Notes: generated by a model not told the origin, from the sequence alone. DNA of 64,000 bases from an uncultured virus (IMG/VR IMGVR_UViG_3300048930_000898) (IMGVR_UViG_3300048930_000898); one strand, 5' to 3'. Counted from the stretch's first letter, positions 13,401 through 64,000 are shown. A program made the numbers and translations.

Positions 13401-13551
13401 AACCGGACAAGAAACTACATCTACAAATCAGCAAGTTTTACAACAAGGGTTACCAGGTGAGCAGCCGGGCCAAGAAATGCCCCAACAACCAGGAAGTCCT
13501 ACAAATCCACTAAGTGGAGGAAAATGGAACCCACAAACTGGTGGAATGTAA
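10408..13551 (+). CDS. Portal protein (P22-like) containing an intein; ~701 aa after splicing
   Basis: Follows TerL; podovirus portal size and motifs (ISGVNSVARG..SG..LA); Q/P-rich tail. Confidence 0.88.
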   Translation: MSDNREEYWAQLEKTEVCSELRKKIEDWYSHISTTGIFRRMRKCYLAYYGFSSAGQGHTSSEVTYGGAQGELSLIKVNQLRNIVQHMLVMTTSTRPSMDARATNTDYKSLSQTVLANSILDYYMRERKLERYLRDSVETSLIFGEAFIRLSWDTSLGDEYMVDNEGKTVFTGDIKFSVHNPMDVIRDVFQPDANEHDWMIVRSFKNRYELMSKYPELKDELMTISTKDRLDFEYMFINFNYTTSSDLIPVYEWYHRRTESMPNGRYITFIDNDVVFYDGDLPYRDIPLYRITPSNQIQTPFGYTAAFDLLALQDITDALHSTIVTNQSTFGVQNIAAPQGHNLTVSQLGGGLNFIEYDPAAGKPEPLNLTFTPPEIFNYLGTIEKTMETISGVNSVARGNPEANLRSGNSLALVQSMAIQFNNGLQQSYAQLIEDVGTAIIKTLKDFASVERTAILTGKNNKSNLKSFKGDDLKDIDRVIVDLGNPLSKCLKKGTKVLMYDGSLKKVEDIKIGEQVMGPDSKLRTVSNVNIGQEEMFDIYHKKTNPKLLYGCNKSHILSLKYCSKDGRYGLKQYDIVDVSVGEFLTWPAGKQQKFMGFRTGVEFQDKDTPVPPYQLGLWLGDGHKNTPAITTMDEEIKQEWYEYAKAVGHDIRVQDQPNNQSKVYFITSSKQNGSNDRNCALNAFKSIGVINNKHIPDLYKINSTNKRLELLAGILDTDGTLISGKTFVITQKNNELAKDIIYLARSLGFKVTSRKRISFSQNKTRGIYNSITISGDTWRIPTRLPRKKANKSKHKYNHLNYGISIKSTGPGTYYGFTLKEEPHFVLGDFTVTHNTTAGKLEMANNLMQMGLIKSPDQYMTVMKTGNLDVMLEGPLRELTYIKQENEWLADGKEAPVLITDNHLQHIMEHKSVLSTIEARMNPEVMRACRIHIEEHVNAMKNADPDVLSMLGIQPLQPGRTQMDNLDPNQAVLRREQEMQAQIAQQSMMGGMPQLPAGTGQETTSTNQQVLQQGLPGEQPGQEMPQQPGSPTNPLSGGKWNPQTGGM
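11875..12912 (+). mobile_element. Intein with LAGLIDADG endonuclease (346 aa) in portal
   Basis: LSK|CLKKGTKVLMYDG ... LGLWLGDG ... LLAGILDTDG ... FTVTHN|T. Confidence 0.95.
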
Positions 13552-16931: not shown

Positions 16932-17705
16932 ATGCTTCAAATAAAAAATATTACTGAAGAAGATATAATTGTAAATTATATTAAAATTGATGCCGGTCAA
17001 ACTTATGATGTTCCATTTAACGATGAACTCAGCTGGGCAAATAATAATGAAGTTATTCAATATATTTCTAATAACAGTTTAAAAATTATAAAAAATGGTA
17101 CAGAATATAACACAATTGTTGAACAACTTTCAGCTTTACAAGGAACCCTAGTAAAATTAGATGAAAGTCGAGATAGTGACGGAGTTCCACTTCAACGTCT
17201 TAAAATTGCAGCAAATGGTGCTAAATTTAAAACTCACCATATTTATTTTAAGACTTCAGATTTAGATAGCTTAAAAGAACGTAAAGAAGATGGAACTTCT
17301 TATGATTATTCCACTCTTAAATTATTTGATATAAACGGAATAGAAATTACAGATTCGGCAAATGAAGGTGATGCGGTTAAAACTGTCGTAGAGTTTGAGC
17401 CACCTTTTACGTATGAAATCATTGGGGGCGGAATATATCAAGCCTCTGTTCCTGCTTCTTCATTAATAGTACATGCAATTTTTGCACCAACAATTCCAGA
17501 AGCATATGGCGGACAAATTCACTTTATAAATGAAGGTCATTTAGAAATGATGGGGACTGGAAAAGTTGTTGATATTGATGGATATGTACCTAAAAAAATT
17601 AATTATGATAGCGTAAATCATTCAGGTCGATTTAATTTTGTATTTCACCACGCTGCAGGTTTACAACATGAGCTTTTGATGTTTATTAAGATATTTGTGC
17701 CATAA
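16932..17705 (+). CDS. Hypothetical virion-region protein
   Basis: 257-aa ORF. Confidence 0.7.
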   Translation: MLQIKNITEEDIIVNYIKIDAGQTYDVPFNDELSWANNNEVIQYISNNSLKIIKNGTEYNTIVEQLSALQGTLVKLDESRDSDGVPLQRLKIAANGAKFKTHHIYFKTSDLDSLKERKEDGTSYDYSTLKLFDINGIEITDSANEGDAVKTVVEFEPPFTYEIIGGGIYQASVPASSLIVHAIFAPTIPEAYGGQIHFINEGHLEMMGTGKVVDIDGYVPKKINYDSVNHSGRFNFVFHHAAGLQHELLMFIKIFVP

Positions 17706-18180
17706 TATGAAAATTGTATTTACACAATCTGATCGTTGGGGTGCAAAGCTAATTCGATGGTTTACAAAGTCTGAATGGAGCCATTGTTTAATAGCACTAG
17801 ACGACGATTTAGAGGGTGAAAATCTTGTATTTGAGTCTACACTATCAGGAGGGGTAAAATTAAGCCTCTGGAGCCGTAGAAATGATAAAAAAAGGGCTAT
17901 TTATAACATTAAAGGGCAGCCTTCAATCAAACCTTTATATCCCTATCTAGGTAAAAATTACGGTTATTTACAAATCCTAGGATACCCCATTGCAAAGCTT
18001 TTTAAATTAAAATACAACCCCTTTAAAAAAGACTACGTTTGTTCGGAAATAGTTTTAAGATTCTTATTAGAAAATAATTACAAAGAGTTTAATTGTCTAG
18101 ATCTTAACACAGCAACCCCAGAAGATATTTATAAAATTTTAAGTAAAAGTCCAAATTTTACATTGTTAAATGTTAATTAA
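17695..18180 (+). CDS. Permuted papain-like (YiiX/YebB NlpC/P60) protein
   Basis: IRWFTKSEWSH (His) ... LGKNY ... YVCSEIV (Cys). Confidence 0.8.
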   Translation: MCHNMKIVFTQSDRWGAKLIRWFTKSEWSHCLIALDDDLEGENLVFESTLSGGVKLSLWSRRNDKKRAIYNIKGQPSIKPLYPYLGKNYGYLQILGYPIAKLFKLKYNPFKKDYVCSEIVLRFLLENNYKEFNCLDLNTATPEDIYKILSKSPNFTLLNVN

Positions 18181-19575: not shown

Positions 19576-22032
19576 ATGTCTGGATCAAACACAGTATCGA
19601 CACTTAATGGTAACTTTAAATTCCTTGAAGTTGTGAGGTAAAGTTGTTAACCCCTCCTAGACAAACAATAGTTTGCTAGAAAAGTACGTGAATTGCTGGA
19701 ACTCCTGAAAAGGACAATCAGCAGCCAAGCCGTAGAGATACGGAAGGTTCAGAGACTACATATAGTAATTATCCTTAGCCGTATGGCGTTGGAGATAAAT
19801 AAAATGCTCAATAAAGATAAACGAAGCATGGTACTATCTTTAGTATTAGGAGATGGTTGTCTGCATTATATTAAAAATAATGGCAGAATCTTCGGTGGTT
19901 TAACAATAGATCATGGAATTAAACAGGCTGACTATCAAAGCTGGAAAGCAAGTTTACTTTCAACTATTTTTAATAAAAACATCAAAGTAAGAACCGGACA
20001 CAAAGGTAAATCAGTTCAACTAAGTCTATGTACAAAAAGATTTAGAGCCTGGAGAAAATTTTGTTATCCTAATAATAAAAAAGATATAGCTAAAATTCTT
20101 CCGTTTATTAATAATCCCGCATTTGCATTAGCAATTTGGCTTGCAGACGATGGTTATGCAGAAGTCGGTAAAAATATTAAATCTCCTAATAGTATATCTA
20201 GTAGATTAAGAATTTTTACTTGTGATCAAAGTATACCTACTCAAGAAGTCATCATTAAATGGTTTAAAACGCAATTTAATGTCAATGCAAAGATTAAATA
20301 TGCTCATAGTAAACAACAAAATAAGTCTTATCCTTATATAAAGTTTACACAAGAAGATAGCTTAAAACTATGGGGAATTATTAGAGATTTTATATTGCAA
20401 TTTAAAAGTATGCAGTATAAATTTAGACATATAGAGCAAGTTTATCAATTACGAATATTACAGCGCGTACCAGATCGTAGGTTTAAATCTACTAAATCTG
20501 ATGATATAGTCCAACCTCCTAGTAATAGTGAGATAAAGTAAAGCGAAGGAAGTATATTCCAACGAAATCAAGAACTTGATTCCGGATGGCGTTAAATTTC
20601 TTAAACTAGTTAACTATGTAGAGTCGAGCAAAGAACTTGGAAATTTTTATCACCAGCCTTAAGAACAGGGCCTCTAATTAGAAATAATTAGATAAACAGT
20701 TCCTGAATTGCTGGAAACTCCCAAATAGGGACAATCAGCAGCGAAGCCTCATAAGAGGAACGTTCAACGACTAGACCGAAAGGTCGTACTGCCAAGCGGC
20801 GGGAAGCGGGAACCATCCTTAATCGGATGAAGATATAGTCTAATCTTACAGGTAACTGTAAGCAGCGAAAGCGGATAAAGAGTAGCGATCTTTATTGAAT
20901 ACAAATGGTTCAACTTTCACACGAACACGGCGTAACTTATTCTGCCGCTAACCCCTCTTTGGGTGCATTTGCACTTCAAGATGCAGTAGCTGCCGTATTC
21001 AAGGACGCTCAAGTTGAAGGTTCTCAAATGCTTATTCGTGCTTCGATGAGCTATGAGGCAGCGGCTCGTGCTTCTAACGATAAAAAAGCTTTCGTAAAAG
21101 CCACTTCACTCATGGTGAAGAACATGGTAAACTCGATGGCTAAACGGCTTGAAGTTTCTAACCTCTATGGACGTAGAAACCTTGCTAAAATTGATTCGCA
21201 AACTGGTGCTGGTACTTCCCGTACATATACCATCTTGGCAGCCGATTGGGCTTCTGGTATCTGGGCAGGTTCCGAAGGTATGCGTCTCGATGTAATCGAC
21301 ACTGCAACACACACTGGCCCTACGGTTCTTTTGAACTCCACAGCCGCTGTTATCGTTGCTGCTGTTGACTTGACAGCTCGTCAAATTTCTGTTACTGGAA
21401 ACGGTGCAGATTTGACTGCAATCGACGCTGCTATCGCCACTGGAGCCTATATGATTCCTCGTGGTGCTCTTAACAACGACATCTTTGGTTTGGATCGTAT
21501 TGTATCGAACACCGGTTCGCTCTACAATATCGATGCCGCTTCCTATGCCCTCTGGCGTGGAAACGTTATTGATAACCTGGGTGTTGCTCTTTCTTTCAGC
21601 AAGATTCTTAACGCTCTTTCACGAGCCGTTGAGCGTGGTCTTGATGAAGATGTAGTTTGCATGATTTCTCCGAAAACATGGGCAAACATTTCTTCTGACC
21701 AAGCGGCTCTTCGTCGTTACGATGATAGCTACAAAGGAAGCAAACTTGAAAACGGATCAGTTGAGTACTCATTCTTTGGACAAAACGGTCGAATTGACAT
21801 TGTTTCTTCGATCTATGTTAAAGAAGGAGAAGCCTTCTTGTTCCCACCTAAGCTTTTGAAGCGTATCGGCGCTATGGACATTTCGTTCAAAATGCCTGGA
21901 CGTCCTCAAGAGGAGTTCTTCCTGGAACTCACAAACAACGCTGGTTATGAACTTCGCGCATACACGGATCAGACCCTGTTTTGCGAAGCTCCTGCGAAGC
22001 TTGTCAAAATCTTTAACATTGTGAATAGCTAA
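19576..22032 (+). CDS. Major capsid protein, spliced: join(19576..19617, 20546..20659, 20908..22032), 426 aa
   Basis: AAGGAG SD; exons join in frame as MSGSNTVSTLNGNF|KEVYSNEIKNLIPDG...FYHQP|VQLSHEHGVTY...; follows the scaffold; highly biased codons. Confidence 0.88.
19618..20545 (+). ncRNA. Group I intron 1 in the capsid gene (928 nt, carries a homing endonuclease)
   Basis: P AATTGCTGGAA, Q AATCAGCAG, R GTTCAGAGACTA, S GATATAGTCC; P1 AACTTT/GAAGTT with U-G; P10 TTCCTT/AAGGAA; terminal G. Confidence 0.93.
19804..20541 (+). CDS. Intron-encoded LAGLIDADG homing endonuclease
   Basis: SLVLGDG and LAIWLADDG motifs; ATG 19804 after GGAG. Confidence 0.88.
   Translation: MLNKDKRSMVLSLVLGDGCLHYIKNNGRIFGGLTIDHGIKQADYQSWKASLLSTIFNKNIKVRTGHKGKSVQLSLCTKRFRAWRKFCYPNNKKDIAKILPFINNPAFALAIWLADDGYAEVGKNIKSPNSISSRLRIFTCDQSIPTQEVIIKWFKTQFNVNAKIKYAHSKQQNKSYPYIKFTQEDSLKLWGIIRDFILQFKSMQYKFRHIEQVYQLRILQRVPDRRFKSTKSDDIVQPPSNSEIK
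20660..20907 (+). ncRNA. Group I intron 2 in the capsid gene (248 nt, no ORF)
   Basis: P AATTGCTGGAAA, Q AATCAGCAG, R GTTCAACGACTA, S AAGATATAGTC; P1 GCCT/GGGC; P10 GAAC/GTTC; terminal G 20907. Confidence 0.93.
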
Positions 22033-22172: not shown

Positions 22173-23027
22173 ATGTCTTACGGTATTATTTATAAAATTA
22201 CAAATCTGTTAAATAATAAAATATACATCGGTCAAACTACTACTAGTATAAATAAACGATGGAATCTACATAAAACCGCATCTAAACTCCAGGGTTTAAA
22301 TTCTAAGACTAAATCTATTTTACATAAAGCAATTCTAAAATATGGTCCATCCAATTTTTCAATAGAAGTTATATATAATTGTTCAAATAAAGAAGAATTA
22401 GATAAACAAGAAGATCTGTTAATTACTGAATATAATTCATTAGCTCCACATGGATATAACATGAAAAGGGGTGGCGGAAATGGAACATGGACACAAAGTT
22501 CTAAAATTAGACAGTCTAACAGGTTAAAATTATTGTACAAAAATAATCCTACTTTAAAAAATAAACTTTCTAAAACCTGGCATACCTTCTGGGATAACCT
22601 ATCGGAAGAAGAACACGAATTTTACGTTTCTAGATGGTCTAAAAAAAGCAAACAATACTGGACTGAAGATAATAAAGCTAAAAAGTCTAAAATTGAGAAA
22701 AAAAGATGGAAAAATCTCGATATTGAACAAAAAAAGAAAAGAATAAAGGGATTTCGAGAATATTGGACAGGCGATAAACTAAAAGAACATGGTGAATATA
22801 TTAAAAGTCTATCCCTTTGGAAAAAAAGCGGCTGTTTAAAAAAAGCTATGGATATATCAAGCAAAAAGGTTAAAGTTATTGAAATAAAAACAGGAAAATG
22901 TGTTATATATGAAAGTCAATCTGCCGTTGTTCGTCATCTTAAAATAGCTCAAAATACTATTGTTGATATAATGAAAAATAGAAGATCTAATGAATATAAA
23001 GGTTATAAGTTTGAAAAAGTCAATTAA
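22173..23027 (+). CDS. Free-standing GIY-YIG homing endonuclease
   Basis: GIIYKITN..NNKIYIGQT..R..H; GYN; NUMOD1-like C-terminus. Confidence 0.9.
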   Translation: MSYGIIYKITNLLNNKIYIGQTTTSINKRWNLHKTASKLQGLNSKTKSILHKAILKYGPSNFSIEVIYNCSNKEELDKQEDLLITEYNSLAPHGYNMKRGGGNGTWTQSSKIRQSNRLKLLYKNNPTLKNKLSKTWHTFWDNLSEEEHEFYVSRWSKKSKQYWTEDNKAKKSKIEKKRWKNLDIEQKKKRIKGFREYWTGDKLKEHGEYIKSLSLWKKSGCLKKAMDISSKKVKVIEIKTGKCVIYESQSAVVRHLKIAQNTIVDIMKNRRSNEYKGYKFEKVN

Positions 23028-23634
23028 AGATCTTTATAGAATAGAGCCCATTTCGTATACAAAGGCTCAAGAATTAGTTAAAAAGAATCATTATTTACAT
23101 GCAAAGGCTCCTTATAAAATAGCCTTCGGTTTAATTTCTAATGATACAAATGAGATAGAAGGAGTTATAATTTATGGTCGAGGTCCATCTGGAAGCGTAT
23201 TTAATAGCATATGTGGCAAAGAAGAGGCTAAAAATGTAATTGAGCTTACTCGTTTATGGGTAAAAGACGGTCTTCCAAAAAACTGCGAAAGCTACCTCAT
23301 TGGTAATACATTACATAAAACCGGTTATGATATTATAGTGTCCTTTGCAGACAGTTCTCAAAATCACATAGGAACGGTATATCAAGCTACTAATTGGATA
23401 TATCTAGGTCTAACGAAGGCCGTTTTAGAATATAAACTAAAGGGAGTTGTGACACATCAATATAAATGGTTTAAGGGATATAGTATAAAAGAGTTAAAAG
23501 AATTCTATGGAGATGACCTATACTTAGCTCCTAGATCTAGAAAGCATAGATATGTTTATTTTACCTCAAGAAGGCGTTATTTACTTAAAAAGTTGAAATT
23601 TCCTATTTTAACGTATCCTAAGAAAAAAGCCTAA
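22990..23634 (+). CDS. Mom-family adenine-modification (GNAT-fold) enzyme
   Basis: NHYLH, ELTRLW...KNCESYLI, IVSFAD..QNHIGTVYQATNWIYLG, KHRYVY. Confidence 0.85.
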   Translation: MNIKVISLKKSIKDLYRIEPISYTKAQELVKKNHYLHAKAPYKIAFGLISNDTNEIEGVIIYGRGPSGSVFNSICGKEEAKNVIELTRLWVKDGLPKNCESYLIGNTLHKTGYDIIVSFADSSQNHIGTVYQATNWIYLGLTKAVLEYKLKGVVTHQYKWFKGYSIKELKEFYGDDLYLAPRSRKHRYVYFTSRRRYLLKKLKFPILTYPKKKA

Positions 23635-48826: not shown

Positions 48827-49318
48827 ATGAAGATGAAAAACGAAATGGATCTAAAAAAAGCACTAGAAGCATTAAAGTCTACTCGTCCAGGTATGTCTAG
48901 AGCAGTTGACAGTGAAGCTGAACGTGAGATGTTAAAGTCTACTCGTCCAGGTATGTCTAGAGCAATTGACAGTGAAGGTGAAACTGACATGCAGACTAAG
49001 GCTTTGCGAAGTGCATTAGAATCTTTGAAAAATATGCCCGAGGGATCTTTGTTCACACCTAGAACTGTTGAAGAGACAAGAATGGCACAAAGCGGTCCGA
49101 TTACAAATGAAGAAGCAGACGATGCAATTCAACGACTATATCAATCTGAAGGATTAACTGACGATACGCCTGCAATGCCTCCTCTTAAATCCAAGGCACC
49201 AATGATGGAAGAAGAGACTCCAGTTGAAAACGAAGGAATTTATGGAAGACTATTTGGTGGAAAGTCTACAAGACAAAAACAGCTTGATGAGCTTGAAAAG
49301 AAAGCTCGCGGTGAGTAA
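48827..49318 (+). CDS. Low-complexity protein with a 60-bp internal duplication
   Basis: LKSTRPGMSRA(V/I)DSE twice (48872-48991). Confidence 0.75.
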   Translation: MKMKNEMDLKKALEALKSTRPGMSRAVDSEAEREMLKSTRPGMSRAIDSEGETDMQTKALRSALESLKNMPEGSLFTPRTVEETRMAQSGPITNEEADDAIQRLYQSEGLTDDTPAMPPLKSKAPMMEEETPVENEGIYGRLFGGKSTRQKQLDELEKKARGE

Positions 49319-50145
49319 TGAAAAAGTTAAAAGCTAAGCTTAAAAAACAATTAAAAAACTTAAAATTAAAAAGTAAACTTCAAAGTGTAAAAGAACCTGC
49401 TTTGCATGCCGCAAGGAATGTTACAGTGTTTGTATTATGCTTAGTTACAGCATTATCTTCTGCATTGGTTGCAGATAGAGGACATAAAGAATATCTAGAA
49501 CATGTAATTGGTGATCAGGTATTATATGTAGAAAGTATGCCCGATAGCAAACTAAAAGGTTCAGCAACCGGGTTTCACGTAAAAGCAAAATCGGGTAATG
49601 TTGTATTTATCACAAATGCTCACGTTTGTGAATTAGGTAACGATAAAGGTATGATTATGGTCCGTGATAAACTTAACAGTGGTCGAGGTGTTCCTCGTCG
49701 TATTCTAGAAGTATACGAACATAATGATCTTTGCGCAGTAGAACCACTCCCAGGGTATAAAGGTTTAACAGTAGCCAGCGATCTAGATGTTGGAGAACCT
49801 GTATGGGCAATAGGATATCCATTAGGTGAGAGTTTAAATATTTCCAATGGTCGAGTAAAAGACTTTGGAACTACTACTCTTTCTGTTAATATCCCGATGG
49901 ATCAGTGTGTCGGTCCTAATCTTCAAAAAGGACAGGTTCAATTCTGGTTTTTTATTGTTGATGTGTGTTTGATAACATATAAATTAGTTCAAACTGATAT
50001 CGTTATTTATGGCGGAAATAGTGGAAGCCCAATGCTTAATATCTTCGGTAATGTAACCGGTGTAGTATTTGCTGCTAACACTAGAACGAACTGGGGCCGA
50101 TCCGTACCTTTAGAGCATTTAAACGATTTGCTTAGTGCATATTAA
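49318..50145 (+). CDS. Trypsin-like (S1) serine protease with N-terminal membrane anchor
   Basis: TNAHV, DL, GNSGSP catalytic motifs. Confidence 0.92.
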   Translation: MKKLKAKLKKQLKNLKLKSKLQSVKEPALHAARNVTVFVLCLVTALSSALVADRGHKEYLEHVIGDQVLYVESMPDSKLKGSATGFHVKAKSGNVVFITNAHVCELGNDKGMIMVRDKLNSGRGVPRRILEVYEHNDLCAVEPLPGYKGLTVASDLDVGEPVWAIGYPLGESLNISNGRVKDFGTTTLSVNIPMDQCVGPNLQKGQVQFWFFIVDVCLITYKLVQTDIVIYGGNSGSPMLNIFGNVTGVVFAANTRTNWGRSVPLEHLNDLLSAY

Positions 50146-50575: not shown

Positions 50576-51112
50576 ATGCAGGTAAGACTAAAGGATCTTC
50601 TGAATCTTATACTGACCGCTATTTTAGGCTCAAAAAATACCTCTATTCATCAAAAAAACCCCCAAAAGACCAGCGAAAATAAGAAAGTCGAGGCTAAGCC
50701 GGTGGCAATTGAAATTTCAGCTTATTTTAGCGATCCTAAGAGCGGAAACGATAGGCGTTTACAGTATCCTGATGATTATACTAATGAAATTCTAGCAAAC
50801 GCTAAAATAACACTAGAAAAGGTAAACTCGTTACTAGAAGAGCTTGGTATGCTTAGCTGCCAGGTTAGCTCAGGATGGAGACCCCCTTCTGTTAATAAAG
50901 CAATAGGTGGGGCTAAACGGTCTTTACATACTCAAGGAAAAGCAATCGACATTCGCGACGGCGATGGTAGTATTGCTAAAACAATTGAAGATAGACCAGA
51001 TTTACTTAAAAAATACGATCTATGGCTTGAAGACCCATCTTTTACTAAGGGATGGTGTCATTTAGACTGGGGTACTAGAACAGATCGTCCCAGCAGGATG
51101 TTTAAACCTTAA
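50576..51112 (+). CDS. Peptidase M15A family endolysin
   Basis: SSGWR...N..IGGA.RSLH..GKAID...WCHLD. Confidence 0.88.
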   Translation: MQVRLKDLLNLILTAILGSKNTSIHQKNPQKTSENKKVEAKPVAIEISAYFSDPKSGNDRRLQYPDDYTNEILANAKITLEKVNSLLEELGMLSCQVSSGWRPPSVNKAIGGAKRSLHTQGKAIDIRDGDGSIAKTIEDRPDLLKKYDLWLEDPSFTKGWCHLDWGTRTDRPSRMFKP

Positions 51113-52499: not shown

Positions 52500-52697
52500 T
52501 TAAATAATTCCTCGTTTTCTTAATGCTTTGTATAATATCTCATGATAATAGTAAAGAACACTGGAAAGAATGCTATAAATAACAGTTAATTCAATGGCAA
52601 TTGAAAACTGGCCAGTATAAAGATATGTAATTGTAAATCCCATGGTCATGGACAATAATCGCCACGTTATTGTTTTATATAAACTTTTCTTACTCAT
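52500..52697 (-). CDS. DUF2061-like membrane protein
   Basis: KSL.KTITWR...YY.HE. Confidence 0.75.
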   Translation of the reverse strand: MSKKSLYKTITWRLLSMTMGFTITYLYTGQFSIAIELTVIYSILSSVLYYYHEILYKALRKRGII

Positions 52698-53296
52698 TTC
52701 TCTTCTTCTGATCTATAGAGATAATCGTCTGTTTCGCCAACAGACCAATTCGTTTCATCCACAAGATATTCAGTAGTATTGATCTTGTATCCCATAGCAG
52801 CTGCGTTACCTTTAACAAGACTGCTGTCATTGAAGACAACACGATTATTTGGATACGCAACCAAGTGACCGCTATCCAGTTCGATAATGTGAGCACATTT
52901 ATGTTCGTTCGGAGTGTCTGAAAGATCACCTTGACCTTCGTAGTCAATCGTGAAACGATAGATACCTTTTTCAGTTTTACCGTTTCTGAGTCTAACGCTA
53001 CAGGCCATGCGCCGAAGAAATTTGAACTCTGTGACTGATACATTGGTAGAAATGTTTGACCATAACTGCGCGTCAGATAAAGATAACCATCCGTCTTCTT
53101 CGGTTGTTTTAAGCGCAGAGATAGGGAGTCCCCAGTAACTTGCTCCGCTTTCAAGGAGGACGTGGAACTGGAGTGCCTTGTGGTGCGGCGCTTTCGCCGC
53201 GTAGAGCCAGCCTCTTTCACTGCCTTCTTTTTTTTTGCCATCCGTCACTGCCCATCTTGCTACGTAAACTTCCATATATGGTAGATTAATATTCAT
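52694..53296 (-). CDS. Conserved phage hypothetical protein
   Basis: FHVLLESGA....LPISA...FTID...EHKC...ELD.G....PNNR. Confidence 0.8.
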   Translation of the reverse strand: MNINLPYMEVYVARWAVTDGKKKEGSERGWLYAAKAPHHKALQFHVLLESGASYWGLPISALKTTEEDGWLSLSDAQLWSNISTNVSVTEFKFLRRMACSVRLRNGKTEKGIYRFTIDYEGQGDLSDTPNEHKCAHIIELDSGHLVAYPNNRVVFNDSSLVKGNAAAMGYKINTTEYLVDETNWSVGETDDYLYRSEEEK

Positions 53297-53781: not shown

Positions 53782-54106
53782 ACTTCACTTTCTTGTTAAC
53801 GTAAAATATTACGTTTCTTTGATTTATTTTATAATTTAACATTTCTTTCATAACTACATTGAAAGTTTTACATTTTGCAATGTCTTTTTTTTCAATATTA
53901 TTATCGTTACACCACGATTTATAGTCAGAGTGAAGAACAAACGCTTTAATTGCATTAGTTCCTTTATCAATATTACATGATTTAATCCATTTGTCAATAC
54001 TAACATACGGATTAAATTCGTTTTTTATCTTATCTCCAGTATAAGATTGGTGCTTTCTAACGAAAGATAGCAGTTTAGCTATTTCACTCTTGTCCTGATT
54101 CATCAT
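53732..54106 (-). CDS. Hypothetical protein, possible D5-primase-type C-terminal winged helix
   Basis: L..DYKSWC..N.......KTF...M pattern. Confidence 0.5.
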   Translation of the reverse strand: MMNQDKSEIAKLLSFVRKHQSYTGDKIKNEFNPYVSIDKWIKSCNIDKGTNAIKAFVLHSDYKSWCNDNNIEKKDIAKCKTFNVVMKEMLNYKINQRNVIFYVNKKVKYEPSKKEKEDGQEAKN

Positions 54107-54881
54107 TAAGCTTCTTTAGCTCATTTTCAGTATTATCGTATTCTTTGATATCTTCATGTTTATCTTCAATAAAATGAAGCTTCACTTCGGATAATATAGG
54201 CATTTTAGTTCTTTCAGAAAACTTCTTCATAAGTCTACCAATTCGTGAGTGATCAGAAGAAGTGGGTTTCTTTCTAGATCTAAACTTTGACCTTCCAGGG
54301 GTGTGTACGATTTTATCAACTAAACCAACCGACAAAGCTTCATCTGCAGTTAAATATAAATCTCGTCTCACAATACTATCCCAGAATGTCTTATCTAACC
54401 ATGAATTATTGGCATAGATTTCATTATATGCATCTTGAACACGTTCAGCTTCTTTTACATAAATCTGCATATCAGTGGTTTTGCCTTCAAATCCATCACT
54501 ACCATCGTGAAGCATAATTGTAGAATTCCTGGATACATAACGTTCATCGCAAACCGCCATAATCACAGTGGCAGCACTCATAATTGCGCCTCTACCATAA
54601 AACACAAATTTACATGGGCTTTCAAGAATCTTATCTACGAGAGCCAGCGAATGGTATGGACTACCACCATAGCTACAGCAATGAATCTCAATTGGTTCCT
54701 TATTAGTAAGGTCCAAAAGCTTATCGATACCGCGCACGGCTAAGGCGATAGATTCAAAGCCGATATCATCATCTCCAGCGCCATCTAGATAGCCCAGGTA
54801 GACCCTTCTATGAAATAGGTCTACACCGTAGCTTAAATAGGTTTGGAGAATACTAGGATCTTTACTCCGCTTCCCCGACAC
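54084..54881 (-). CDS. Second, divergent ClpP-family protease
   Basis: GTG 54881 after AAGGAG; RRVYL, SYGGS, MSAAT (Ser), MLHD (His), RDLYLTADEAL..GLVD (Asp); C-terminal extension. Confidence 0.88.
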   Translation of the reverse strand: MSGKRSKDPSILQTYLSYGVDLFHRRVYLGYLDGAGDDDIGFESIALAVRGIDKLLDLTNKEPIEIHCCSYGGSPYHSLALVDKILESPCKFVFYGRGAIMSAATVIMAVCDERYVSRNSTIMLHDGSDGFEGKTTDMQIYVKEAERVQDAYNEIYANNSWLDKTFWDSIVRRDLYLTADEALSVGLVDKIVHTPGRSKFRSRKKPTSSDHSRIGRLMKKFSERTKMPILSEVKLHFIEDKHEDIKEYDNTENELKKLNDESGQE

Positions 54882-55404
54882 GCTTTTTCTCCTTATAAAC
54901 ACGATCAACAGCAATTGTGACAACGTAGTTAGATTTTAAAGCGTCGCTATGGAGTGTAACCTTTTTAACATCACCAGGAACGGTTCCGGTAAGAGCATCA
55001 ATAATTTCCTTGGGGAGCTGATCATTATCAGAATTTCCAAGGACAATATAAGATTCTTGAGTTGGTACGCCTTCTGTTTCTTGCCCTTCAACTTCTTCTT
55101 TAACACGAAAACGAATAGCATTACCAAGAGCGGCGGGAGTTTCTGCTAATTCTAGTCCATATAGTTTTTCTTGTACAGACCAGACTGCTTCATTAATCTC
55201 TTCTTCTTTAACACCAAGCTTAGTTACAAGCAAAGTTTCAAGAGCGTCCATTTTTTGCTTAATGGCAATAAGACTCTTCTTAGTTTCATTTGTTAAAACT
55301 GTAGCAGCTTCGTAAACTTCAGCTTTAATATCGTCTTTTGTTTGAGCACGAGCAGCCATCAATACTGCTTGTTGAAAACTCATATTAGATTTAGGACTAG
55401 CCAT
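54862..55404 (-). CDS. Protein with a degenerate trigger-factor-like FKBP domain
   Basis: AALGNAIRF....VEGQETEG......IVLG....LPKEIIDALTG..PGDVKKVTL resembles the TF PPIase domain. Confidence 0.6.
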   Translation of the reverse strand: MASPKSNMSFQQAVLMAARAQTKDDIKAEVYEAATVLTNETKKSLIAIKQKMDALETLLVTKLGVKEEEINEAVWSVQEKLYGLELAETPAALGNAIRFRVKEEVEGQETEGVPTQESYIVLGNSDNDQLPKEIIDALTGTVPGDVKKVTLHSDALKSNYVVTIAVDRVYKEKKRVGEAE

Positions 55405-55700
55405 TATTTATTCTCCTTTTTTTGGTCACATTTTAAACAAAATTCATAGCGTTCATTTAAACCAGTATAACATCTCCACTGATGAGCGCAAGACGTATTC
55501 GTAGGTTTATTTACAGGCATGTTTTCAAGTTCCTGTTCAGCTTCAAAATCCCATGGAAAGTAAGTTTTTTTAACTGGAGGTTTTTTAGAACTATCATCGT
55601 CATCATCCCAGTTTTGAAAGAAAGCGGCAATACTTTGTTTAGATGAAACGTCTAAACTTTTAATCATTTGATGAATATATTTAAAGTTTAATTCTTCCAT
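55404..55700 (-). CDS. Hypothetical protein with C-terminal CxH...CxxC zinc-binding motif
   Basis: CAHQWR.Y.GL...YEFCLKC. Confidence 0.65.
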   Translation of the reverse strand: MEELNFKYIHQMIKSLDVSSKQSIAAFFQNWDDDDDSSKKPPVKKTYFPWDFEAEQELENMPVNKPTNTSCAHQWRCYTGLNERYEFCLKCDQKKENK

Positions 55701-56244
55701 GTTTTCTTGCTTTCATCAACTTTTTATTCCACATGTTCATTTTCATTGTACTTACTTTTGTACAGATTGGCTTTCCAAGCATATGCTCAATCTCATGCTG
55801 GATACATTCAGCTTCTACTCCAGTAAGAATGGCGGTTTTATCTTGCCAGTTCATGTCTTTATATCTTACCGTAACTTCTGTATGTCTGTCAATTGGCTCT
55901 TGAAATAAAGGCAAAGAAAGACAACCCTCTTGCATTTGTACAAGTTCACCTTCAGTTTCAATAATAACTGGATTAATCATTTCAACAACTTGTCTTTTTG
56001 AGGGATTGACAGGATCTATTGAATTAGTGTATAATACACAAAATTTCTTATGTACACCAATTTGAACTGCAGCTAGACCAACTCCTCGATATTCTTCCAT
56101 GATTTTAATCATTGGTTTTACCATTTTCTGAAGCTCTGGAAGATCTTCTTGTACACAGTCTTCTGATGGCTTTAAAAGCCTCGAATCGGGCCAAGTAACT
56201 AGTTGATAAATACCCTTTGGTAGTACATCAGGAAGTTGTAACAT
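55681..56244 (-). CDS. def: Peptide deformylase
   Basis: GVGLAAVQIG, EGCLS, QHEIEH. Confidence 0.93.
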   Translation of the reverse strand: MLQLPDVLPKGIYQLVTWPDSRLLKPSEDCVQEDLPELQKMVKPMIKIMEEYRGVGLAAVQIGVHKKFCVLYTNSIDPVNPSKRQVVEMINPVIIETEGELVQMQEGCLSLPLFQEPIDRHTEVTVRYKDMNWQDKTAILTGVEAECIQHEIEHMLGKPICTKVSTMKMNMWNKKLMKARKHGRIKL

Positions 56245-56245
56245 A

Positions 56246-56521
56246 TTATTTACCCCTTTTATCTGAAGGAATTAACCATAGTTTTATTTCAAACTCTTCC
56301 ATCTTTCTGTCTACTTTTACTTCACAATTACTATAACTAGTGATCATTCTATAATGCTCTTTATTAGCAGATTTAACAATAACATGACCGGTTACTATGC
56401 AGCTATCGCCCCTTAAATTGGTAATATCCTGATCTTGTTCTTTTAAAAAAAGAGTTGTATTCTTACTCGCAGCACAGCCTGCTAGAATAATATTAAAAGT
56501 TAAAAATATAAGTAATTTCAT
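56246..56521 (-). CDS. Lipoprotein
   Basis: MKLLIFLTFNIILAGC lipobox. Confidence 0.7.
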   Translation of the reverse strand: MKLLIFLTFNIILAGCAASKNTTLFLKEQDQDITNLRGDSCIVTGHVIVKSANKEHYRMITSYSNCEVKVDRKMEEFEIKLWLIPSDKRGK

Positions 56522-56975
56522 TATTATTTTCTTTCTGTATTTCAAATCCGAGTTTTTGATGTAAATATTTTGAAGCCTCGTTGTCTTTTTTTACAATACC
56601 CCGTAGTTTAGTATATCCTTTATTTCTCGCCCAATCAATAGCTAAGTCTAACATAATTTCAGACCAACCCTTACCTCTGTGAGCTTCTGCAATAAAAAAA
56701 GCCCATTCTTTTGTATTTTGATCATCATCTTTCATATCATTTCTAAATTCAACATAACCGATGATTTCATTAGAAGACCCAGTTTTAAAGACTAATTTTG
56801 GATAGTTAGTATATTTATATACAGCTTCAAATTCTTCCCAGCTTACAGGCATATTACTGTCAGAAAATCTCACCACCTCTGGGTCATTTCTCATTAACCA
56901 AACCTGTTTTAAGTCACCCTCTTCCATTTGTTTGATTAATTGCAAAAAACTTCTGTTTTCGACATTATTTGACAT
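56493..56975 (-). CDS. GNAT acetyltransferase (RimJ/RimL/PseH-like)
   Basis: RNDPEV, HRGKGW, N.AS..LHQKLGF. Confidence 0.88.
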   Translation of the reverse strand: MSNNVENRSFLQLIKQMEEGDLKQVWLMRNDPEVVRFSDSNMPVSWEEFEAVYKYTNYPKLVFKTGSSNEIIGYVEFRNDMKDDDQNTKEWAFFIAEAHRGKGWSEIMLDLAIDWARNKGYTKLRGIVKKDNEASKYLHQKLGFEIQKENNNEITYIFNF

Positions 56976-57973: not shown

Positions 57974-59968
57974 TTAATCTTCAAATAGAGCAAATCCGCT
58001 GCCTTTTTTGGGTTTAGCAAAATCAAGCTTAAACCTAGTGGCATGATCTAGAAGCTCTTTAACAACCAGTGAGATTGATTTACTATGCAATCTACTTCGA
58101 ATTACAATCTCTTGCAAATGCGCAATAGAAAATGAATTTACACCGGGATTGTTCTTTTCATCAAGAGCATCCTTCTCTTCTTTTGTTAGCTTTCTTTTAG
58201 CAATAAATTCAACCAGTGAGAGTCGTTCTTTCTGAGAAGGTGGCTCAATTTCAAGCATCATATCAAAACGGCCAGGCCTTTGGGCCAAGGAAGCCATGAG
58301 GTTCTCAGGGTGATTGGTTGTAGAAATAATCATAGTTGGAATTTTAAACACGTTATTAATACCATCGAGGAGGTTTAAAAGACTACTAGAAACTTCATCT
58401 CTTCGGCTATATCCCTCGTGACTACTTCCACCAATGTCTTCAATTACTAGAATAAGCTTAGTTGCTTCTGGTGTATATTCACTATATTTAGTAAAGAATT
58501 TAAATACAGTAGACGCGTCAATTTCAGAAGTTGGCCAGTTAATAACAACAGTACCAGGATCTTTATCTTTAATATCCTTTGCCGCTTGCATGATACTACA
58601 TGTTTTACCGCAGTTATGAGTAACAGTAAAATCTTCCATTAAATATAAATGATCTTTGTCTACTGTAAATCCGTAATAATCATCCTCTGGCAACAATTCT
58701 AATTTAAATCCATTACGTAAAACATTTTTAATTTGTTTTCTTTTTTCTGCTTTCTTTCGCTTTAATCTAGAGGGGATCATGTCAATGTCACCTAAAATGG
58801 CAACTCTCCAATAAGTACCTTCAGTACCATTTTGACTTTTTTTCTTACAACTTTTAATATATGCAGCAAGTCCTAATGATCTTGATAAATATACAACGTC
58901 ATTTGCTAATTGTTTATTTACTGAAACGTAGTCAAATCTTCCTTTGTTTAAATTTCCATCGGTGTCTATAATTCCTGCCAAGAGTTCAAGTCTTTGTTGT
59001 CTAGAGCTTCTTAGATATTTAACAGGAATATGTTTGTTTTTAATAAGATTCAATGCTTTTAGTGCATTAAATGCGCGATTTTTTCCGACCTTGGGACCAC
59101 CATTACGAGCCGTTATAGTATATGTTGAAGATTTATTATTAAGCTGAGTTTGTACTCTTACATCATGACCAACAACATTAGCATAATCATACCATTCTTG
59201 TTTGATTTCGTTATCCATAGTTGTTATGGCAGCCAAATTAGAACTACCATCTCCAAGCCACAGTCCAAGAACATAGGGATTAATTTCTAAATTTTGTTCT
59301 TTAAATTCTACTCCGACTTTATAAAGTTTTAATTTTTCATCATGCTTTGAAATGATATTATTTATTTCTATATTAAAAATTTGATTTTTTACAGAATGAA
59401 CTAAACTTAAAATATGACCTTTATTTACAATAAAAGAATCACCCTTGGTTGGTATAACTTTTACCATTTCTTGGCGACCTCTAACAAGTTTTAAAACCTC
59501 TCTGGGTTGACTGTCTGGTCCCATGAGTTTATCACCAACTACAATATCTTGAACAAGTTTAATTGAACCGTCATGCATTAAAATCCCTTGATTTTTTGCG
59601 TGACATCCAGGAAGGCCATATAACAATACGCCTCTCTTTTTTGGTTGACCTAGCTCTTCATATACAGATAAATTGTTAAAAAACATATCAGCTTCATTTA
59701 AAATCATGGCCGTATTTGTAACAGTTGTAAGAAGCTCTCTTTCAACAAATTCCATGGGGGCAAGTTCAACTGCCGTGCTGGTTTTATTTAAATTATAACT
59801 ACCGGGTTTGATTACAATAGGCTTTTGTTCTTTTTCTTCTTTTACATAATCAAACTGTAATACGTAACCCTGGTCCTGTAGAGCAAGGTCGGACTCCGGA
59901 ATAGTGTCAACCTTTCCTTCGTAAATATCTTTTAAAGTTGTTTTGTTTTTTAATTTAAAATTACCCAT
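57974..59968 (-). CDS. AAA+ ATPase containing an intein (~333 aa after splicing)
   Basis: KRGVLLYGLPG|CGKT, VIEDI, LLNLLDG, TTNHPE, RPGRFD. Confidence 0.92.
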   Translation of the reverse strand: MGNFKLKNKTTLKDIYEGKVDTIPESDLALQDQGYVLQFDYVKEEKEQKPIVIKPGSYNLNKTSTAVELAPMEFVERELLTTVTNTAMILNEADMFFNNLSVYEELGQPKKRGVLLYGLPGCHAKNQGILMHDGSIKLVQDIVVGDKLMGPDSQPREVLKLVRGRQEMVKVIPTKGDSFIVNKGHILSLVHSVKNQIFNIEINNIISKHDEKLKLYKVGVEFKEQNLEINPYVLGLWLGDGSSNLAAITTMDNEIKQEWYDYANVVGHDVRVQTQLNNKSSTYTITARNGGPKVGKNRAFNALKALNLIKNKHIPVKYLRSSRQQRLELLAGIIDTDGNLNKGRFDYVSVNKQLANDVVYLSRSLGLAAYIKSCKKKSQNGTEGTYWRVAILGDIDMIPSRLKRKKAEKRKQIKNVLRNGFKLELLPEDDYYGFTVDKDHLYLMEDFTVTHNCGKTCSIMQAAKDIKDKDPGTVVINWPTSEIDASTVFKFFTKYSEYTPEATKLILVIEDIGGSSHEGYSRRDEVSSSLLNLLDGINNVFKIPTMIISTTNHPENLMASLAQRPGRFDMMLEIEPPSQKERLSLVEFIAKRKLTKEEKDALDEKNNPGVNSFSIAHLQEIVIRSRLHSKSISLVVKELLDHATRFKLDFAKPKKGSGFALFED
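58613..59605 (-). mobile_element. Intein with LAGLIDADG endonuclease (331 aa) in the Walker A motif
   Basis: PG|CHAKNQGILMHDG ... LLAGIIDTDG ... FTVTHN|C. Confidence 0.95.
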
Positions 59969-63105: not shown

Positions 63106-64000
63106 TTACTCTTCTGATTCACCGGATGGCTCGCCAACTAATTTCATGCCGTCTTTTGTAATATCTATCTGAATTTTTTTATGTAAATTTGCCCCGTCAA
63201 ATAAATGTGATTTGTAGAGCGTCCACTGTACACGAGCACCAATTCTTACCTGTTCACCTTTAACAGTCTTTTCAAGCCACTTGAAGCGACTAGTTTGAAA
63301 AGTAAGCGCACTGAAGAAGTCTACGGCATTGCCGCCTGCGTTTGTGCGACCCGGCGACCCCATGTTGGCATAGGTCTGGTTAATAACCAGGATGTGAATT
63401 TTATCTTTGTTTAGCTTAGGAACAAGTCTACGAAAACCTCTCTTGTTTACCTTAGCGGCAAGACCCATCTGCAGACTGTCGTCAACGTCAGTATCAGCCT
63501 CCGCCCTGGCTGGAGTATTACCGAGGCTATCAAAAACAACTAGAATTCGACCATCTGGGTCTGCTTCTTTAATGTATTCAATATACTTATCAATACCATC
63601 ATAAGCATCTTCCAGATAGTCGGGTCTGATAAGAGCAATTTGTTCAGGATCTACACCGCGAGAAGTAAGCCGTGCCCCAGTGGTCTTTTTCTCTGTATCT
63701 ACCAAAATAACATGCACCCCTTGGGCTTGGGCATTCTTAATAGCTTCAATAGCAAAAGATGTATTATGGGTAACTGTAAAGTCTCCTAAGAGGAAAAGAG
63801 GGTCTTCTACTAAGGTAAACCCGTAATAGTCTCCTACCCCCAATGATTCAATCTTAAAGCCTGTAGTTAATGGATTTCGGTTACCATTGAAAGGAAGTGC
63901 TTTCTTTCTTTGCACACGACATGGAATTACATTTGTGTTTCCAGAGATTGAAATTCGATAATACTTTCCAGAAAAGCCGGTGGATTTAATAGTGCCGATT
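63106..64000 (-). CDS. RecA/UvsX-like recombinase with intein, 5' end outside the window
   Basis: Frame open to 64000; VDTEK, VVFDSL, MGLAAK, INQ, GGNAVDF. Confidence 0.9.
   Translation of the reverse strand, partial: IGTIKSTGFSGKYYRISISGNTNVIPCRVQRKKALPFNGNRNPLTTGFKIESLGVGDYYGFTLVEDPLFLLGDFTVTHNTSFAIEAIKNAQAQGVHVILVDTEKKTTGARLTSRGVDPEQIALIRPDYLEDAYDGIDKYIEYIKEADPDGRILVVFDSLGNTPARAEADTDVDDSLQMGLAAKVNKRGFRRLVPKLNKDKIHILVINQTYANMGSPGRTNAGGNAVDFFSALTFQTSRFKWLEKTVKGEQVRIGARVQWTLYKSHLFDGANLHKKIQIDITKDGMKLVGEPSGESEE
63763..64000 (-). mobile_element. Intein C-terminal part in the RecA-like gene
   Basis: YYGFTL...LGDFTVTHN|TSFA; the +1 Thr fits the Walker A GK-T. Confidence 0.9.

Follow-up and report, generated by a model that had tools for sequence, protein, structure and literature searches.

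A trigger factor-like FKBP protein encoded beside a ClpP-family protease in an uncultured phage

The DNA examined here is a 64,000-nucleotide stretch from an uncultured virus (IMGVR_UViG_3300048930_000898), hereafter called the window. On its minus strand, positions 56975 to 54084 encode, among other products, a peptide deformylase (PDF), a 180-amino-acid protein that we call X, and a divergent ClpP-family serine protease, ClpP2. X carries an FKBP domain of the trigger factor type, and genes of its family recur upstream of proteases in diverged phages. These recurrent neighbours, the trigger factor ancestry and the location of the ClpP2 start codon inside X are best fitted by a role for X as a chaperone or adaptor in a proteostasis cassette. 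We give about an even chance to the reading that the interval encodes a protein-biogenesis and proteolysis cassette in which X is a small chaperone or adaptor cooperating with the protease encoded downstream.

Organization of the six-gene interval

The window is phage DNA. Its plus-strand arm holds terminase, portal, major head protein and tail-like genes. The minus-strand arm runs from ~64000 to ~51100 through a UvsX/RecA-like gene, SbcD, SbcC, an AAA ATPase with a LAGLIDADG intein and a RuvC-like gene to the PDF-X-ClpP2 interval, which belongs to a phage operon in this replication/recombination arm. A preliminary reading made from the sequence alone (the original prediction) had described four tightly packed genes here, for a GNAT acetyltransferase, PDF, X and ClpP2, and each was found on the minus strand where it had been placed. 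That list was incomplete, as two further conserved genes (56246–56545 and 55404–55700) lie inside the interval, which therefore comprises six genes in a row. Because the junctions overlap by 1–29 nucleotides (nt) or abut, the description of tight packing is correct. The features of the interval are as follows:

56493–56975, minus strand: GNAT acetyltransferase, 160 amino acids (PF00583, 8.6e-15; PF13302, 1.7e-14; phrog_1249, 5e-19)
56246–56545, minus strand: small lipoprotein-like gene, a 99-amino-acid open reading frame (ORF) from TTG, with an LAGC lipobox (…IILAGC)
55681–56244, minus strand: PDF, 187 amino acids, with a basic C-terminal helix (PF01327, 133 bits)
55404–55700, minus strand: 98-amino-acid protein with an acidic middle and a putative zinc ribbon (C-terminal C-x-H...C-x-x-C)
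54862–55404, minus strand: X, 180 amino acids, with a basic N-terminus, an SF motif, a long helix at 10–62, a helix at 67–81 and a trigger factor-type FKBP domain at ~87–176 (AlphaFold2 model)
54889–54894, minus strand: Shine-Dalgarno sequence AAGGAG for ClpP2, within the last codons of X, with a 7-nt spacer to the GTG at 54881–54879
54084–54881, minus strand: ClpP2, 265 amino acids from GTG, divergent ClpP-family serine protease with a ~70-amino-acid C-terminal tail (PF00574, 79.2 bits)

The interval DNA gave no match among 50,697 phage records, and neither did X, as DNA or as protein, nor a distant member of its family (P0045). The window terminase is at most 30% identical to any of these records, and there is no close cultured phage. 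One IMG/VR contig represents the same phage, being 100% identical over X and ClpP2.

X has a trigger factor-type FKBP domain

The fold of X was modelled with AlphaFold2 on 15 relatives (predicted local distance difference test, pLDDT, 77.3). The model, which gives fold and not activity, places a beta-rich domain at residues 95–171. When it was compared with the PDB by Foldseek, the five best matches were all trigger factor (1.7e-5 to 8e-4), followed at lower ranks by SlyD, FKBPs and FkpA (1q6u, 3.7e-3) and, further down, by GreA. VIA-align gave the same order, with the prolyl isomerase (PPIase) domain of Thermotoga maritima trigger factor (residues 137–231) aligned at Z 10.1 (root-mean-square deviation, rmsd, 4.7; 94 residues aligned) and Z 9.9 (rmsd 3.0, 84 aligned), SlyD at Z 8.8–8.2 and FKBP12 at ~7. 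A Z of at least 5 was reached by 296 of 990 aligned chains. The 50 entries listed contain FKBP domains without exception and comprise trigger factor, SlyD, SlpA and FKBPs.

Sequence profiles point in the same direction. The NCBIfam trigger factor model (tig, TIGR00115) matches X at 3.6e-7, aligning X 61–154 with profile positions 118–211. In the reverse comparison, residues 119–244 of Escherichia coli trigger factor (TF) were the sole non-family match to a hidden Markov model (HMM) of 65 X-family members among the ORFs compared (22.2 bits). Neighbours of X in the ESM Atlas are trigger factor/FKBP clusters (scores 0.78–0.82), which we treat as leads only. Foldseek, VIA-align and the tig profile thus agree with the original prediction that the C-terminal half of X follows the trigger factor FKBP pattern, and the comparison of 54862–55404 with trigger factor that it had proposed returned an FKBP fold. 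Judged from these profile matches and the predicted structure, the C-terminal part of X (~60–176) is homologous to the trigger factor linker plus PPIase domain.

X nevertheless falls outside the named families. It has no Pfam or PHROG family, a PDB sequence search gave nothing significant (best E 0.92), and the FKBP family PF00254 found no match in X at E ≤ 0.01, nor in the nearest virus record. The search for Trigger_N in X gave no match at E ≤ 0.01, and the tig alignment begins only at profile position 118; X also ends 4–9 residues past the FKBP domain, with no C-terminal arm domain. Lacking both the N domain and the arm domain, X does not qualify as a trigger factor by the criteria of that family. 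What the two proteins share, at the level of fold and weakly of sequence, is the FKBP/PPIase-type domain and the linker preceding it. X is, however, 180 amino acids long compared with 432 for trigger factor, and it has a basic tail and a helix of ~50 residues in place of the ribosome-binding N domain and the arm domain.

The original prediction had also suggested that X lacks the PPIase aromatic residues. We take the aromatic active-site pocket of E. coli TF to consist of F177, F185 and F198, among which F198 matters for isomerase activity. In the alignments available, which are weak here, X has T110, S118 and I134 at these positions, and the X-family consensus has F, a variable residue and L. 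The Phe198 position is thus aliphatic (Ile in X, Leu in the consensus), a difference from trigger factor that is consistent with the suggestion but, given the weak alignments, falls short of proving it. X probably has no prolyl isomerase activity.

Other FKBP-containing proteins resemble X less closely. SlyD, FkpA and Mip have the FKBP fold, and FkpA and Mip share with X the layout of a long N-terminal helix followed by a C-terminal FKBP domain. However, X has no insert-in-flap domain, so that residues 89–176 align to the FKBP part of SlyD alone, and, in contrast to FkpA, which is periplasmic, it carries no signal peptide. Trigger factor ranks above all three in both structure searches, and tig is the only one of these families matched by sequence. 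A GreA/GreB-like identity, which would combine a coiled coil with an FKBP-like C domain, was also considered. It was rejected because trigger factor, SlyD and FKBPs all outrank GreA (2pn0, 17th, 7.1e-3, rmsd 15) and only tig is matched by sequence.

X belongs to an unnamed and apparently phage-restricted family

A profile search of the full library yielded 118 cluster representatives at E ≤ 0.001, with 20 of them at ≤ 1e-10, where clusters are defined at 50% identity. These proteins are 115–254 amino acids long, and most align over nearly the full profile. Common to the family are a basic N-terminus, an S-F-x-x-x-V motif, a long helix and the FKBP domain. When 40 members were scanned against PHROGs, 38 had no match and two had weak matches of unknown function; none of 10 clusters that were looked up carried a name. 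The X family is therefore unnamed until now, and is derived from a trigger factor linker and PPIase domain fused to a basic tail and long helix.

X is known so far from viral or metagenomic contigs alone, and the family is apparently phage-restricted. A sequence pattern for one X subgroup (A4), scanned over the bacterial and archaeal genomes of 185,579 species, gave 37 pattern matches and no relatives; since that scan covered a single subgroup, its empty result is limited evidence for a viral family. The pattern for subgroup A12 found no viral locus.

X recurs beside PDF, GroES-like and protease genes

Gene neighbourhoods were read in IMG/VR and JGI contigs; most X-family members come from other assemblies. 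Fourteen distinct X-bearing contigs were examined, of which 12 were found through X itself (the window, L003–L006, L008–L013 and L091). The other two (L019 and L041) were found through ClpP2 and are kept apart from the counts because of ascertainment bias. A gene of the ClpP2 clade follows X directly, or after one small gene, in seven of the 12 contigs (the window, L004, L005 and L010–L013). A GroES-like gene comes after X in five, a Wss1-like HExxH zincin in two (L006 and L091), and PDF lies within ~1.1 kb upstream in six. The synteny check called for by the original prediction therefore shows a linkage that is conserved in relatives. Since all of these neighbours, which include proteases from two unrelated classes, act in protein biogenesis or proteolysis, they support a chaperone/degradation module.

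The contigs fall into two lineages. In lineage A, whose members resemble the window and share many genes with it, PDF, the zinc-ribbon protein and X occur together in six contigs (the window, L004, L005, L006, L008 and L091). This grouping holds down to ~25–30% identity in X and tolerates the insertion of a phosphoesterase or of as many as three small genes; in L091, a metallophosphoesterase lies between PDF and X. ClpP2 follows X in the window, L004 and L005, and the same slot holds the zincin in L006 and L091. Unknown small genes come after X in L008, and L003 is a 1.6-kb fragment in which X is followed by an HNH gene. No ClpP remnants were found after X in L006, L008, L009 or L091.

In lineage B, which comprises L009–L013 together with L019 and L041, the portal gene lies upstream of X, as does terminase where the locus reaches that far. 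The next gene after X is GroES-like in all seven contigs (88–110 amino acids; for example L011:6599–6865), and a ClpP-like gene follows it in all but L009. Further downstream come a Cas4-like exonuclease, seen in every contig but L041, another ClpP-like paralog at four of the loci, and, in L009, L011–L013 and L041, a phrog_1028 protease. Except for the ClpP genes, no ORF of L009–L013 matches the window by BLASTP at 1e-4, and the X proteins are alike at the profile level only. The lineage B ClpP beside X matches ClpP2 (1e-17 to 1e-24) better than it matches the canonical ClpP also present in the window (ClpP1, described below; 1e-10 to 1e-13).

Assignment of the GroES-like gene rests on a profile of six such proteins, which gave seven PDB matches, all of them GroES (best 3.5e-6). 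Individually, the L012 protein reaches 22.3 bits with Pfam Cpn10 (PF00166), above the gathering score of 21.1, the L011 protein reaches 19.8 bits, and the other four of the six have no match. The window itself has no GroES-like gene (best E 0.022) and no Wss1-like gene. The two genes that occupy the ClpP2 slot in its relatives are:

L006:1237–1641: Wss1-like zincin with HExxH, directly after X
L091:5476–5940: Wss1-like zincin with HExxH, directly after X

The zincin family comprises proteins of ~130–155 amino acids. None of 24 homologs has a Pfam domain, and H88-E89-x-x-H92 is invariant in 21 sequences. A sequence search of the PDB gave no significant match (best E 0.33). The structural model (pLDDT 89.2) is closest to Wss1 (Z 9.7, rmsd 3.3, 108 aligned; Foldseek 6.1e-3), and the gene after X in L006 and L091 is thus predicted to have a minimal, Wss1-like zincin fold, the likeness to the Wss1 family being at the fold level only.

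ClpP2 starts inside X and belongs to a phage-specific clade

The start of ClpP2 is most likely the GTG at 54881 and not the TTG at 54923, because AAGGAG lies 7 nt upstream and the L005 ortholog starts at the corresponding place. From this GTG, ClpP2 overlaps the end of X by 20 nt, which bears out the overlap noted in the original prediction. With both its start codon and its Shine-Dalgarno sequence inside the end of X, ClpP2 is probably translated in a manner coupled to X.

ClpP2 is a member of the ClpP family, scoring 79.2 bits with PF00574 against a gathering score of 20.2 and matching 105 ClpP sequences in the PDB at E ≤ 0.001 (best 1.4e-13). It is not an equivalog of cellular ClpP (TIGR00493, 50.2 bits with a cut-off of 308.6). 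The catalytic triad was read from an alignment of eight sequences including E. coli ClpP, in which all eight share S111, H136 and D185 (numbered after the E. coli precursor), as the original prediction of a full triad had it. A five-sequence alignment had put the serine two positions off; the eight-sequence alignment was used, and its placement of the serine is supported by phmmer against PDB chain 7m1l, with a two-residue loop deletion. The long C-terminal tail, likewise foreseen, is ~70 amino acids and is conserved in L004 and L005 (57% identical in L005). It is unrelated to the small genes that lie between X and ClpP in other phages.

The window encodes a second ClpP on the other strand:

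6282–6863, plus strand: ClpP1, canonical ClpP, 51% identical to E. coli ClpP

ClpP1 exceeds the cut-off of NF001368 (273.5 bits versus 249) and groups with E. coli ClpP in the tree described below (98*). It lies ~2 kb upstream of terminase, echoing the order of ClpP and terminase in L015, L017 and L018. As in the two-paralog ClpP systems of actinobacteria, Listeria and Chlamydia, this phage has a canonical and a divergent ClpP, both with a triad, and relatives have a second ClpP-like paralog a few genes downstream. In addition, 7m1l is among the best PDB matches of ClpP2 and aligns the ClpP2 serine to the catalytic serine with the same two-residue loop gap. ClpP1 could conceivably serve as a second ring partner of ClpP2. 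However, a phage ClpP1/ClpP2 hetero-oligomer is pure inference, the two genes are 48 kb apart, and none of the aligned cellular enzymes showed the 70-amino-acid tail.

A quick maximum-likelihood tree of 83 ClpP-like sequences, which contains long branches, places eight of the nine X-linked ClpPs in one clade of 25 rows (Shimodaira–Hasegawa-like approximate likelihood ratio test, SH-aLRT, 87), apart from the canonical clade that holds E. coli ClpP and ClpP1. The ninth, from L011, is on a long branch outside. On this tree the X label requires four changes, compared with a mean of 8.7 when labels are shuffled, and none of 500 shuffles gave a value as low. A scan for a ClpP2-clade motif recovered 77 viral loci. 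In seven of these, an X-family gene lies no more than 4 kb away, in each case immediately upstream on the same strand.

GNAT genes occupy the corresponding position elsewhere. In an inner clade of 22 rows, 15 of the 17 rows without X have a GNAT directly upstream; of the remaining two, one is truncated where its locus stops. By these counts, members of the phage-specific ClpP clade are nearly always preceded by X, accompanied or not by GroES, or by a GNAT. The window carries both X and a GNAT in one operon with ClpP2; the GNATs beside ClpP in other phages have no BLAST similarity to the window GNAT. A recurrent order of GNAT, ClpP2-clade protease, small gene and second ClpP-like paralog (or trypsin-like protease) was also noted among phages. 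The GNAT-ClpP2-clade order is seen in L015, L017, L018, L020, L032, L034, L036–L040, L042, L043, L045, L047 and L048. In L015, L017 and L018, whose loci were annotated further, terminase follows this arrangement.

PDF, GNAT and the small genes of the operon

The PDF of the window is intact, as the original prediction had stated. It scores 114.9 bits with TIGR00079, above the cut-off of 103.95, and the three catalytic motifs GxGxAAxQ, EGCLS and HExxH are invariant relative to E. coli Def (G46-L47-A48..Q51, E89-G90-C91-L92 and H133-E134..H137). The alignment with Def runs through the region of the basic C-terminal helix. Frank et al. (PMC3660681) cite this helix as the element by which E. coli Def docks on the ribosome. 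They report that the PDF of cyanophage S-SSM7 lacks it, as do at least 52 of the 70 PDFs from marine viruses, whereas the window PDF has it.

By its profile matches, the GNAT is generic. The original prediction had assigned it to the RimJ/L type, an assignment that these matches do not demonstrate. The 15 NCBIfam families listed at E ≤ 0.001 include no RimJ/RimL model and all score below their cut-offs (rimI, 24.3 bits versus 86.4), and the PF13302 score (1.7e-14) is no better than that of the generic PF00583 (8.6e-15). A homolog that is 41% identical occupies the same relative position in L091, and GNATs of the window type accompany X in two of the 12 contigs found through X.

The small lipoprotein-like gene probably starts at the ATG at 56521, giving MKLLIFLTFNIILAGC. 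It has no Pfam family and is kept just upstream of PDF in L004, L005, L008 and L091 (BLASTP 1e-17 to 1e-23). The 98-amino-acid protein, for which no Pfam or PHROG family was found, carries the C-terminal motif C-x-H-x-W...Y-T-G-L-N-E...F-C-x-K-C. Its homologs lie between PDF and X in L004, L005 and L006, as in the window, and directly after PDF in L091. This putative zinc-ribbon protein could be a partner of PDF or of X.

The AAA ATPase upstream of the interval

The original prediction had nominated the AAA+ ATPase at 57974–59968 (minus strand) as a partner of the protease. This protein is a classic-clade AAA with a P-loop split by an intein. Its nearest PDB matches are Cdc48, AFG2 and p97 (best Cdc48, 8e-20), and its best NCBIfam matches are PAN and FtsH, with CDC48 also represented, all far below cut-off. 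Inspection by eye of the segment separating Walker A from Walker B showed no aromatic-hydrophobic-Gly pore loop. The gene lies among recombination genes, between SbcC and the RuvC-like gene, and was not seen near the X-ClpP pair in lineage B loci. Nothing was found that ties the ATPase to ClpP2, and its nomination as a partner was set aside.

The intein of this ATPase is of the Hint plus LAGLIDADG kind and is located within the P-loop (GLPG/C...THN/C-GKT). The UvsX/RecA-like gene at the window edge (63106–63999, minus strand) has the same ...DFTVTHN junction, and the middle part (482–837) of the portal protein (10408–13551, plus strand) matches the same 'intein-like' PHROGs. Three essential-type genes of the window thus appear to bear inteins; in L005, the orthologous AAA and RecA genes have none.

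A model for the cassette and its alternatives

We propose that X would act as a small holdase or adaptor that binds unfolded or newly made polypeptides, and that it would work with whichever protease is encoded directly downstream, which is ClpP2 in the window and a Wss1-like zincin in close relatives. PDF would process the N-termini of the phage protein burst, and the GNAT may modify substrates or the protease. The unfoldase feeding ClpP2 would be host ClpX or ClpA, possibly acting through a mixed ClpP1/ClpP2 complex. The analysis shows the identities of the genes, the fold of X, the catalytic triad of ClpP2 and the gene linkages; client binding by X, its cooperation with ClpP2 and the supply of ClpP2 by an unfoldase are what we infer. 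Bacteria offer a precedent for this pairing. A study of trigger factor and ClpXP (PMC7804408) describes tig as widely adjoining clpPX and trigger factor as a ClpXP adaptor. With trigger factor, ClpXP degrades certain substrates faster, and likewise a fraction of newly synthesised proteins; the adaptor touches the AAA+ ring of ClpX through its PPIase and N domains, and its isomerase activity is dispensable (PMC7804408). X is positioned directly upstream of a clpP-family gene, as is tig in E. coli, but no clpX is adjacent to X-ClpP2.

Several observations weigh against a chaperone/protease cassette. The tig score of X (29.4 bits) is far from the family cut-off of 180.2, and hhalign of the close X family with E. 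coli TF is weak (probability 1.7%, 41 columns). The linkage to ClpP is not obligate, since X has no ClpP neighbour in L006, L008, L009, L091 and the fragment L003, and X is found at only seven of the 77 ClpP2-like loci. Because contigs within a lineage represent related phages, the independent comparisons amount to about two lineages plus the protease swap. Furthermore, the lineage B cassette lies between portal and prohead protease, and the best PHROGs of ClpP2 are labelled 'head maturation protease' (phrog_94, 3e-27), as is its best NCBIfam model (NF045542, ClpP-related head maturation protease; 75 bits, cut-off 120). This position and these labels leave room for a morphogenetic role.

A head-assembly function is therefore a possible, though doubtful, explanation. 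It would have X and the GroES-like protein fold capsid proteins, and the ClpP2-clade enzyme serve as a prohead/maturation or virion-packaged protease, with the pair having moved to the early arm in the window lineage; a reading of X as a scaffold protein was kept only as part of it. Phage GroES homologs such as T4 gp31 do serve capsid protein folding. In L009–L013, L019 and L041 the cassette is downstream of portal (and of terminase where held) and, in five of these seven, upstream of the phrog_1028 protease, and a related ClpP pair sits just upstream of terminase in L015, L017 and L018. However, the window pair is ~32 kb from the capsid gene, on the opposite strand and among recombination genes, and the NF045542 score is well below its cut-off. 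Lineage B already has a separate prohead protease, and its Cas4-like exonuclease lies within the same stretch. The zincin that replaces ClpP in L006 and L091 is no known prohead protease type, and a PDF beside X would be ill-suited to a purely structural role. The neighbours of X may instead reflect nothing beyond shared ancestry, with separately useful auxiliary genes having come to rest in a plastic region. Homing endonucleases and gene swaps are indeed frequent around X (an HNH gene in L003, the metallophosphoesterase in L091, ClpP2 missing in L006, L008 and L091), and the low share of ClpP2-like loci with X fits such a view. Nevertheless, two lineages between which BLAST detects no common ORF in these regions, the ClpP genes aside, both have the pair. 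Moreover, X invariably lies directly upstream in the same orientation, and the ClpP2 start overlaps X. This recurrence, fixed order and strand, and overlapping start make coincidence less likely. In addition, another protease type takes the place of the lost ClpP in two contigs, and every recurrent neighbour belongs to folding, maturation or degradation. We regard chance adjacency as unlikely.

The upstream GNATs raise the further idea that a ClpP2-clade protease, with a specificity partner encoded upstream (X here, a GNAT elsewhere), redirects proteolysis to host or defence proteins. The frequency of GNATs in the position that X otherwise fills suggests such a partnership, as do the presence of the window GNAT in the same operon and of the X-ClpP2 pair in the early/replication arm. 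The phage GNAT Rac is reported to cause the alpha subunit of host RNA polymerase to be cleaved, a process in which ClpX and HslU are implicated (PMC7552054), and trigger factor accelerates the degradation of selected substrates by ClpXP (PMC7804408). Against this stand the lack of BLAST similarity between the window GNAT and those beside ClpP elsewhere, the lack of a known substrate, and the GroES-like and PDF neighbours, which point to folding and maturation and not to an attack on the host. We consider host takeover of this kind improbable.

The original prediction had favoured a complete pathway in which nascent chains at the ribosome exit are handled jointly by the GNAT, PDF and X, and failures are passed by the AAA+ ATPase (57974–59968) to ClpP2 for degradation. 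This is consistent with the Def-type helix retained by PDF, which mediates ribosome binding in E. coli (PMC3660681), with the co-occurrence of PDF, the zinc-ribbon protein and X in six contigs even at low X identity, and with an AAA clade that includes protein unfoldases. However, X has no trigger factor N domain, its modelled N-terminus is a single long helix, and the tig match covers profile positions 118–211 only; of the proteins concerned, only PDF has a helix of the ribosome-binding type. The generic GNAT and an AAA ATPase that lacks a visible pore loop, has only sub-threshold NCBIfam matches, lies between SbcC and a RuvC-like gene and was not seen in lineage B loci likewise argue against it. 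The full pathway is thus quite unlikely. What survives of the claim that the phage carries its own N-terminal maturation, chaperone and degradation pathway is the chaperone/degradation module, which gene linkage supports; action at the ribosome exit, the RimJ/L identity and the AAA+ partner are not supported.

A more ambitious form of the chaperone/adaptor model can also be drawn, although we rate it a long shot. Here X would mimic the contact of trigger factor with ClpX as an adaptor, bringing the host unfoldase or clients to a ClpP2 or ClpP1/ClpP2 ring. Together with a ribosome-docking PDF, this would constitute a virus-run co-translational triage in which products are deformylated, held, and then released to GroEL/ES-type folding or degraded. 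If true, it would be the first dedicated viral chaperone-protease relay, and X would represent a new family of minimal trigger factor-derived chaperones with an interchangeable downstream protease (ClpP-type or Wss1-type).

Relation to known phage proteostasis genes

Phages are known to carry single proteostasis genes, namely PDF, GroES and ClpP, and to our knowledge they are generally thought to depend on host chaperones for everything else. Among the phage records, PDFs occur in 132 and ClpP-like genes in 462, and a GroES-like family exists (phrog_3188). In the window and its relatives, by contrast, such genes are gathered in one cassette around an unannotated trigger factor-like gene, and ClpP2 belongs to a phage-specific clade with X or a GNAT directly upstream. 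A phage PDF has been characterised from a cyanophage (PMC3660681). In the full-text literature searched, to which most subscription journals do not belong, none of the papers listed described a phage trigger factor-like protein or a linked PDF-X-ClpP set.

What is new here is a cut-down, phage-borne trigger factor derivative, its tig-clpP-like arrangement and the interchangeable protease. A family of 118 clusters without a PHROG or Pfam name can now be recognised as a cut-down trigger factor, and at least two phage lineages, deeply diverged from each other, keep it in a fixed arrangement with proteases and a co-chaperonin. The X-ClpP2 order mirrors the bacterial tig-clpP arrangement, the functional meaning of which was, as far as we know, shown only in 2021. 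If X steers the protease, it would provide a compact, testable model of client transfer from a chaperone domain to a degradation machine, and a handle on the abundance in phages of ClpP paralogs to which the label 'head maturation protease' is routinely given without evidence. Names are also gained for several 'hypothetical' phage families, namely X, the Wss1-like zincin, the GroES-like gene and the ClpP2 clade.

Other features of the window

The structural arm of the window contains the following genes:

8939–10375, plus strand: terminase
10408–13551, plus strand: portal, 1047 amino acids
20905–22032, plus strand: major head protein

Within this head module, between the portal and capsid genes, is a 161-amino-acid protein of the ClpP/crotonase superfamily (17695–18180, plus strand; phrog_1128 'enoyl-CoA hydratase-like', 1.4e-22). 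It has no Pfam or NCBIfam match and does not match the ClpP HMMs, and it is a candidate for the real prohead protease. LAGLIDADG and GIY-YIG homing endonucleases flank the capsid gene and are followed by a Mom-like DNA modification gene (phrog_1384, 1.6e-48); the coordinates of these three genes are 19693–20541, 22173–23027 and 22990–23634 (plus strand).

Facing the operon is a conserved pair formed by a trypsin-like serine protease (49318–50145, plus strand) and an M15-type peptidase/endolysin (50576–51112, plus strand). Orthologs of the pair are present in L004, L005 and L008, and of the protease alone in L006; trypsin-like genes are also found near X in L009 and near ClpP in L018. Finally, the minus-strand gene at 52694–53296 encodes a 200-amino-acid protein that has no Pfam or NCBIfam match, matches phrog_3704 'ferredoxin' (2.1e-43) and is 74% identical in L004 and L005.

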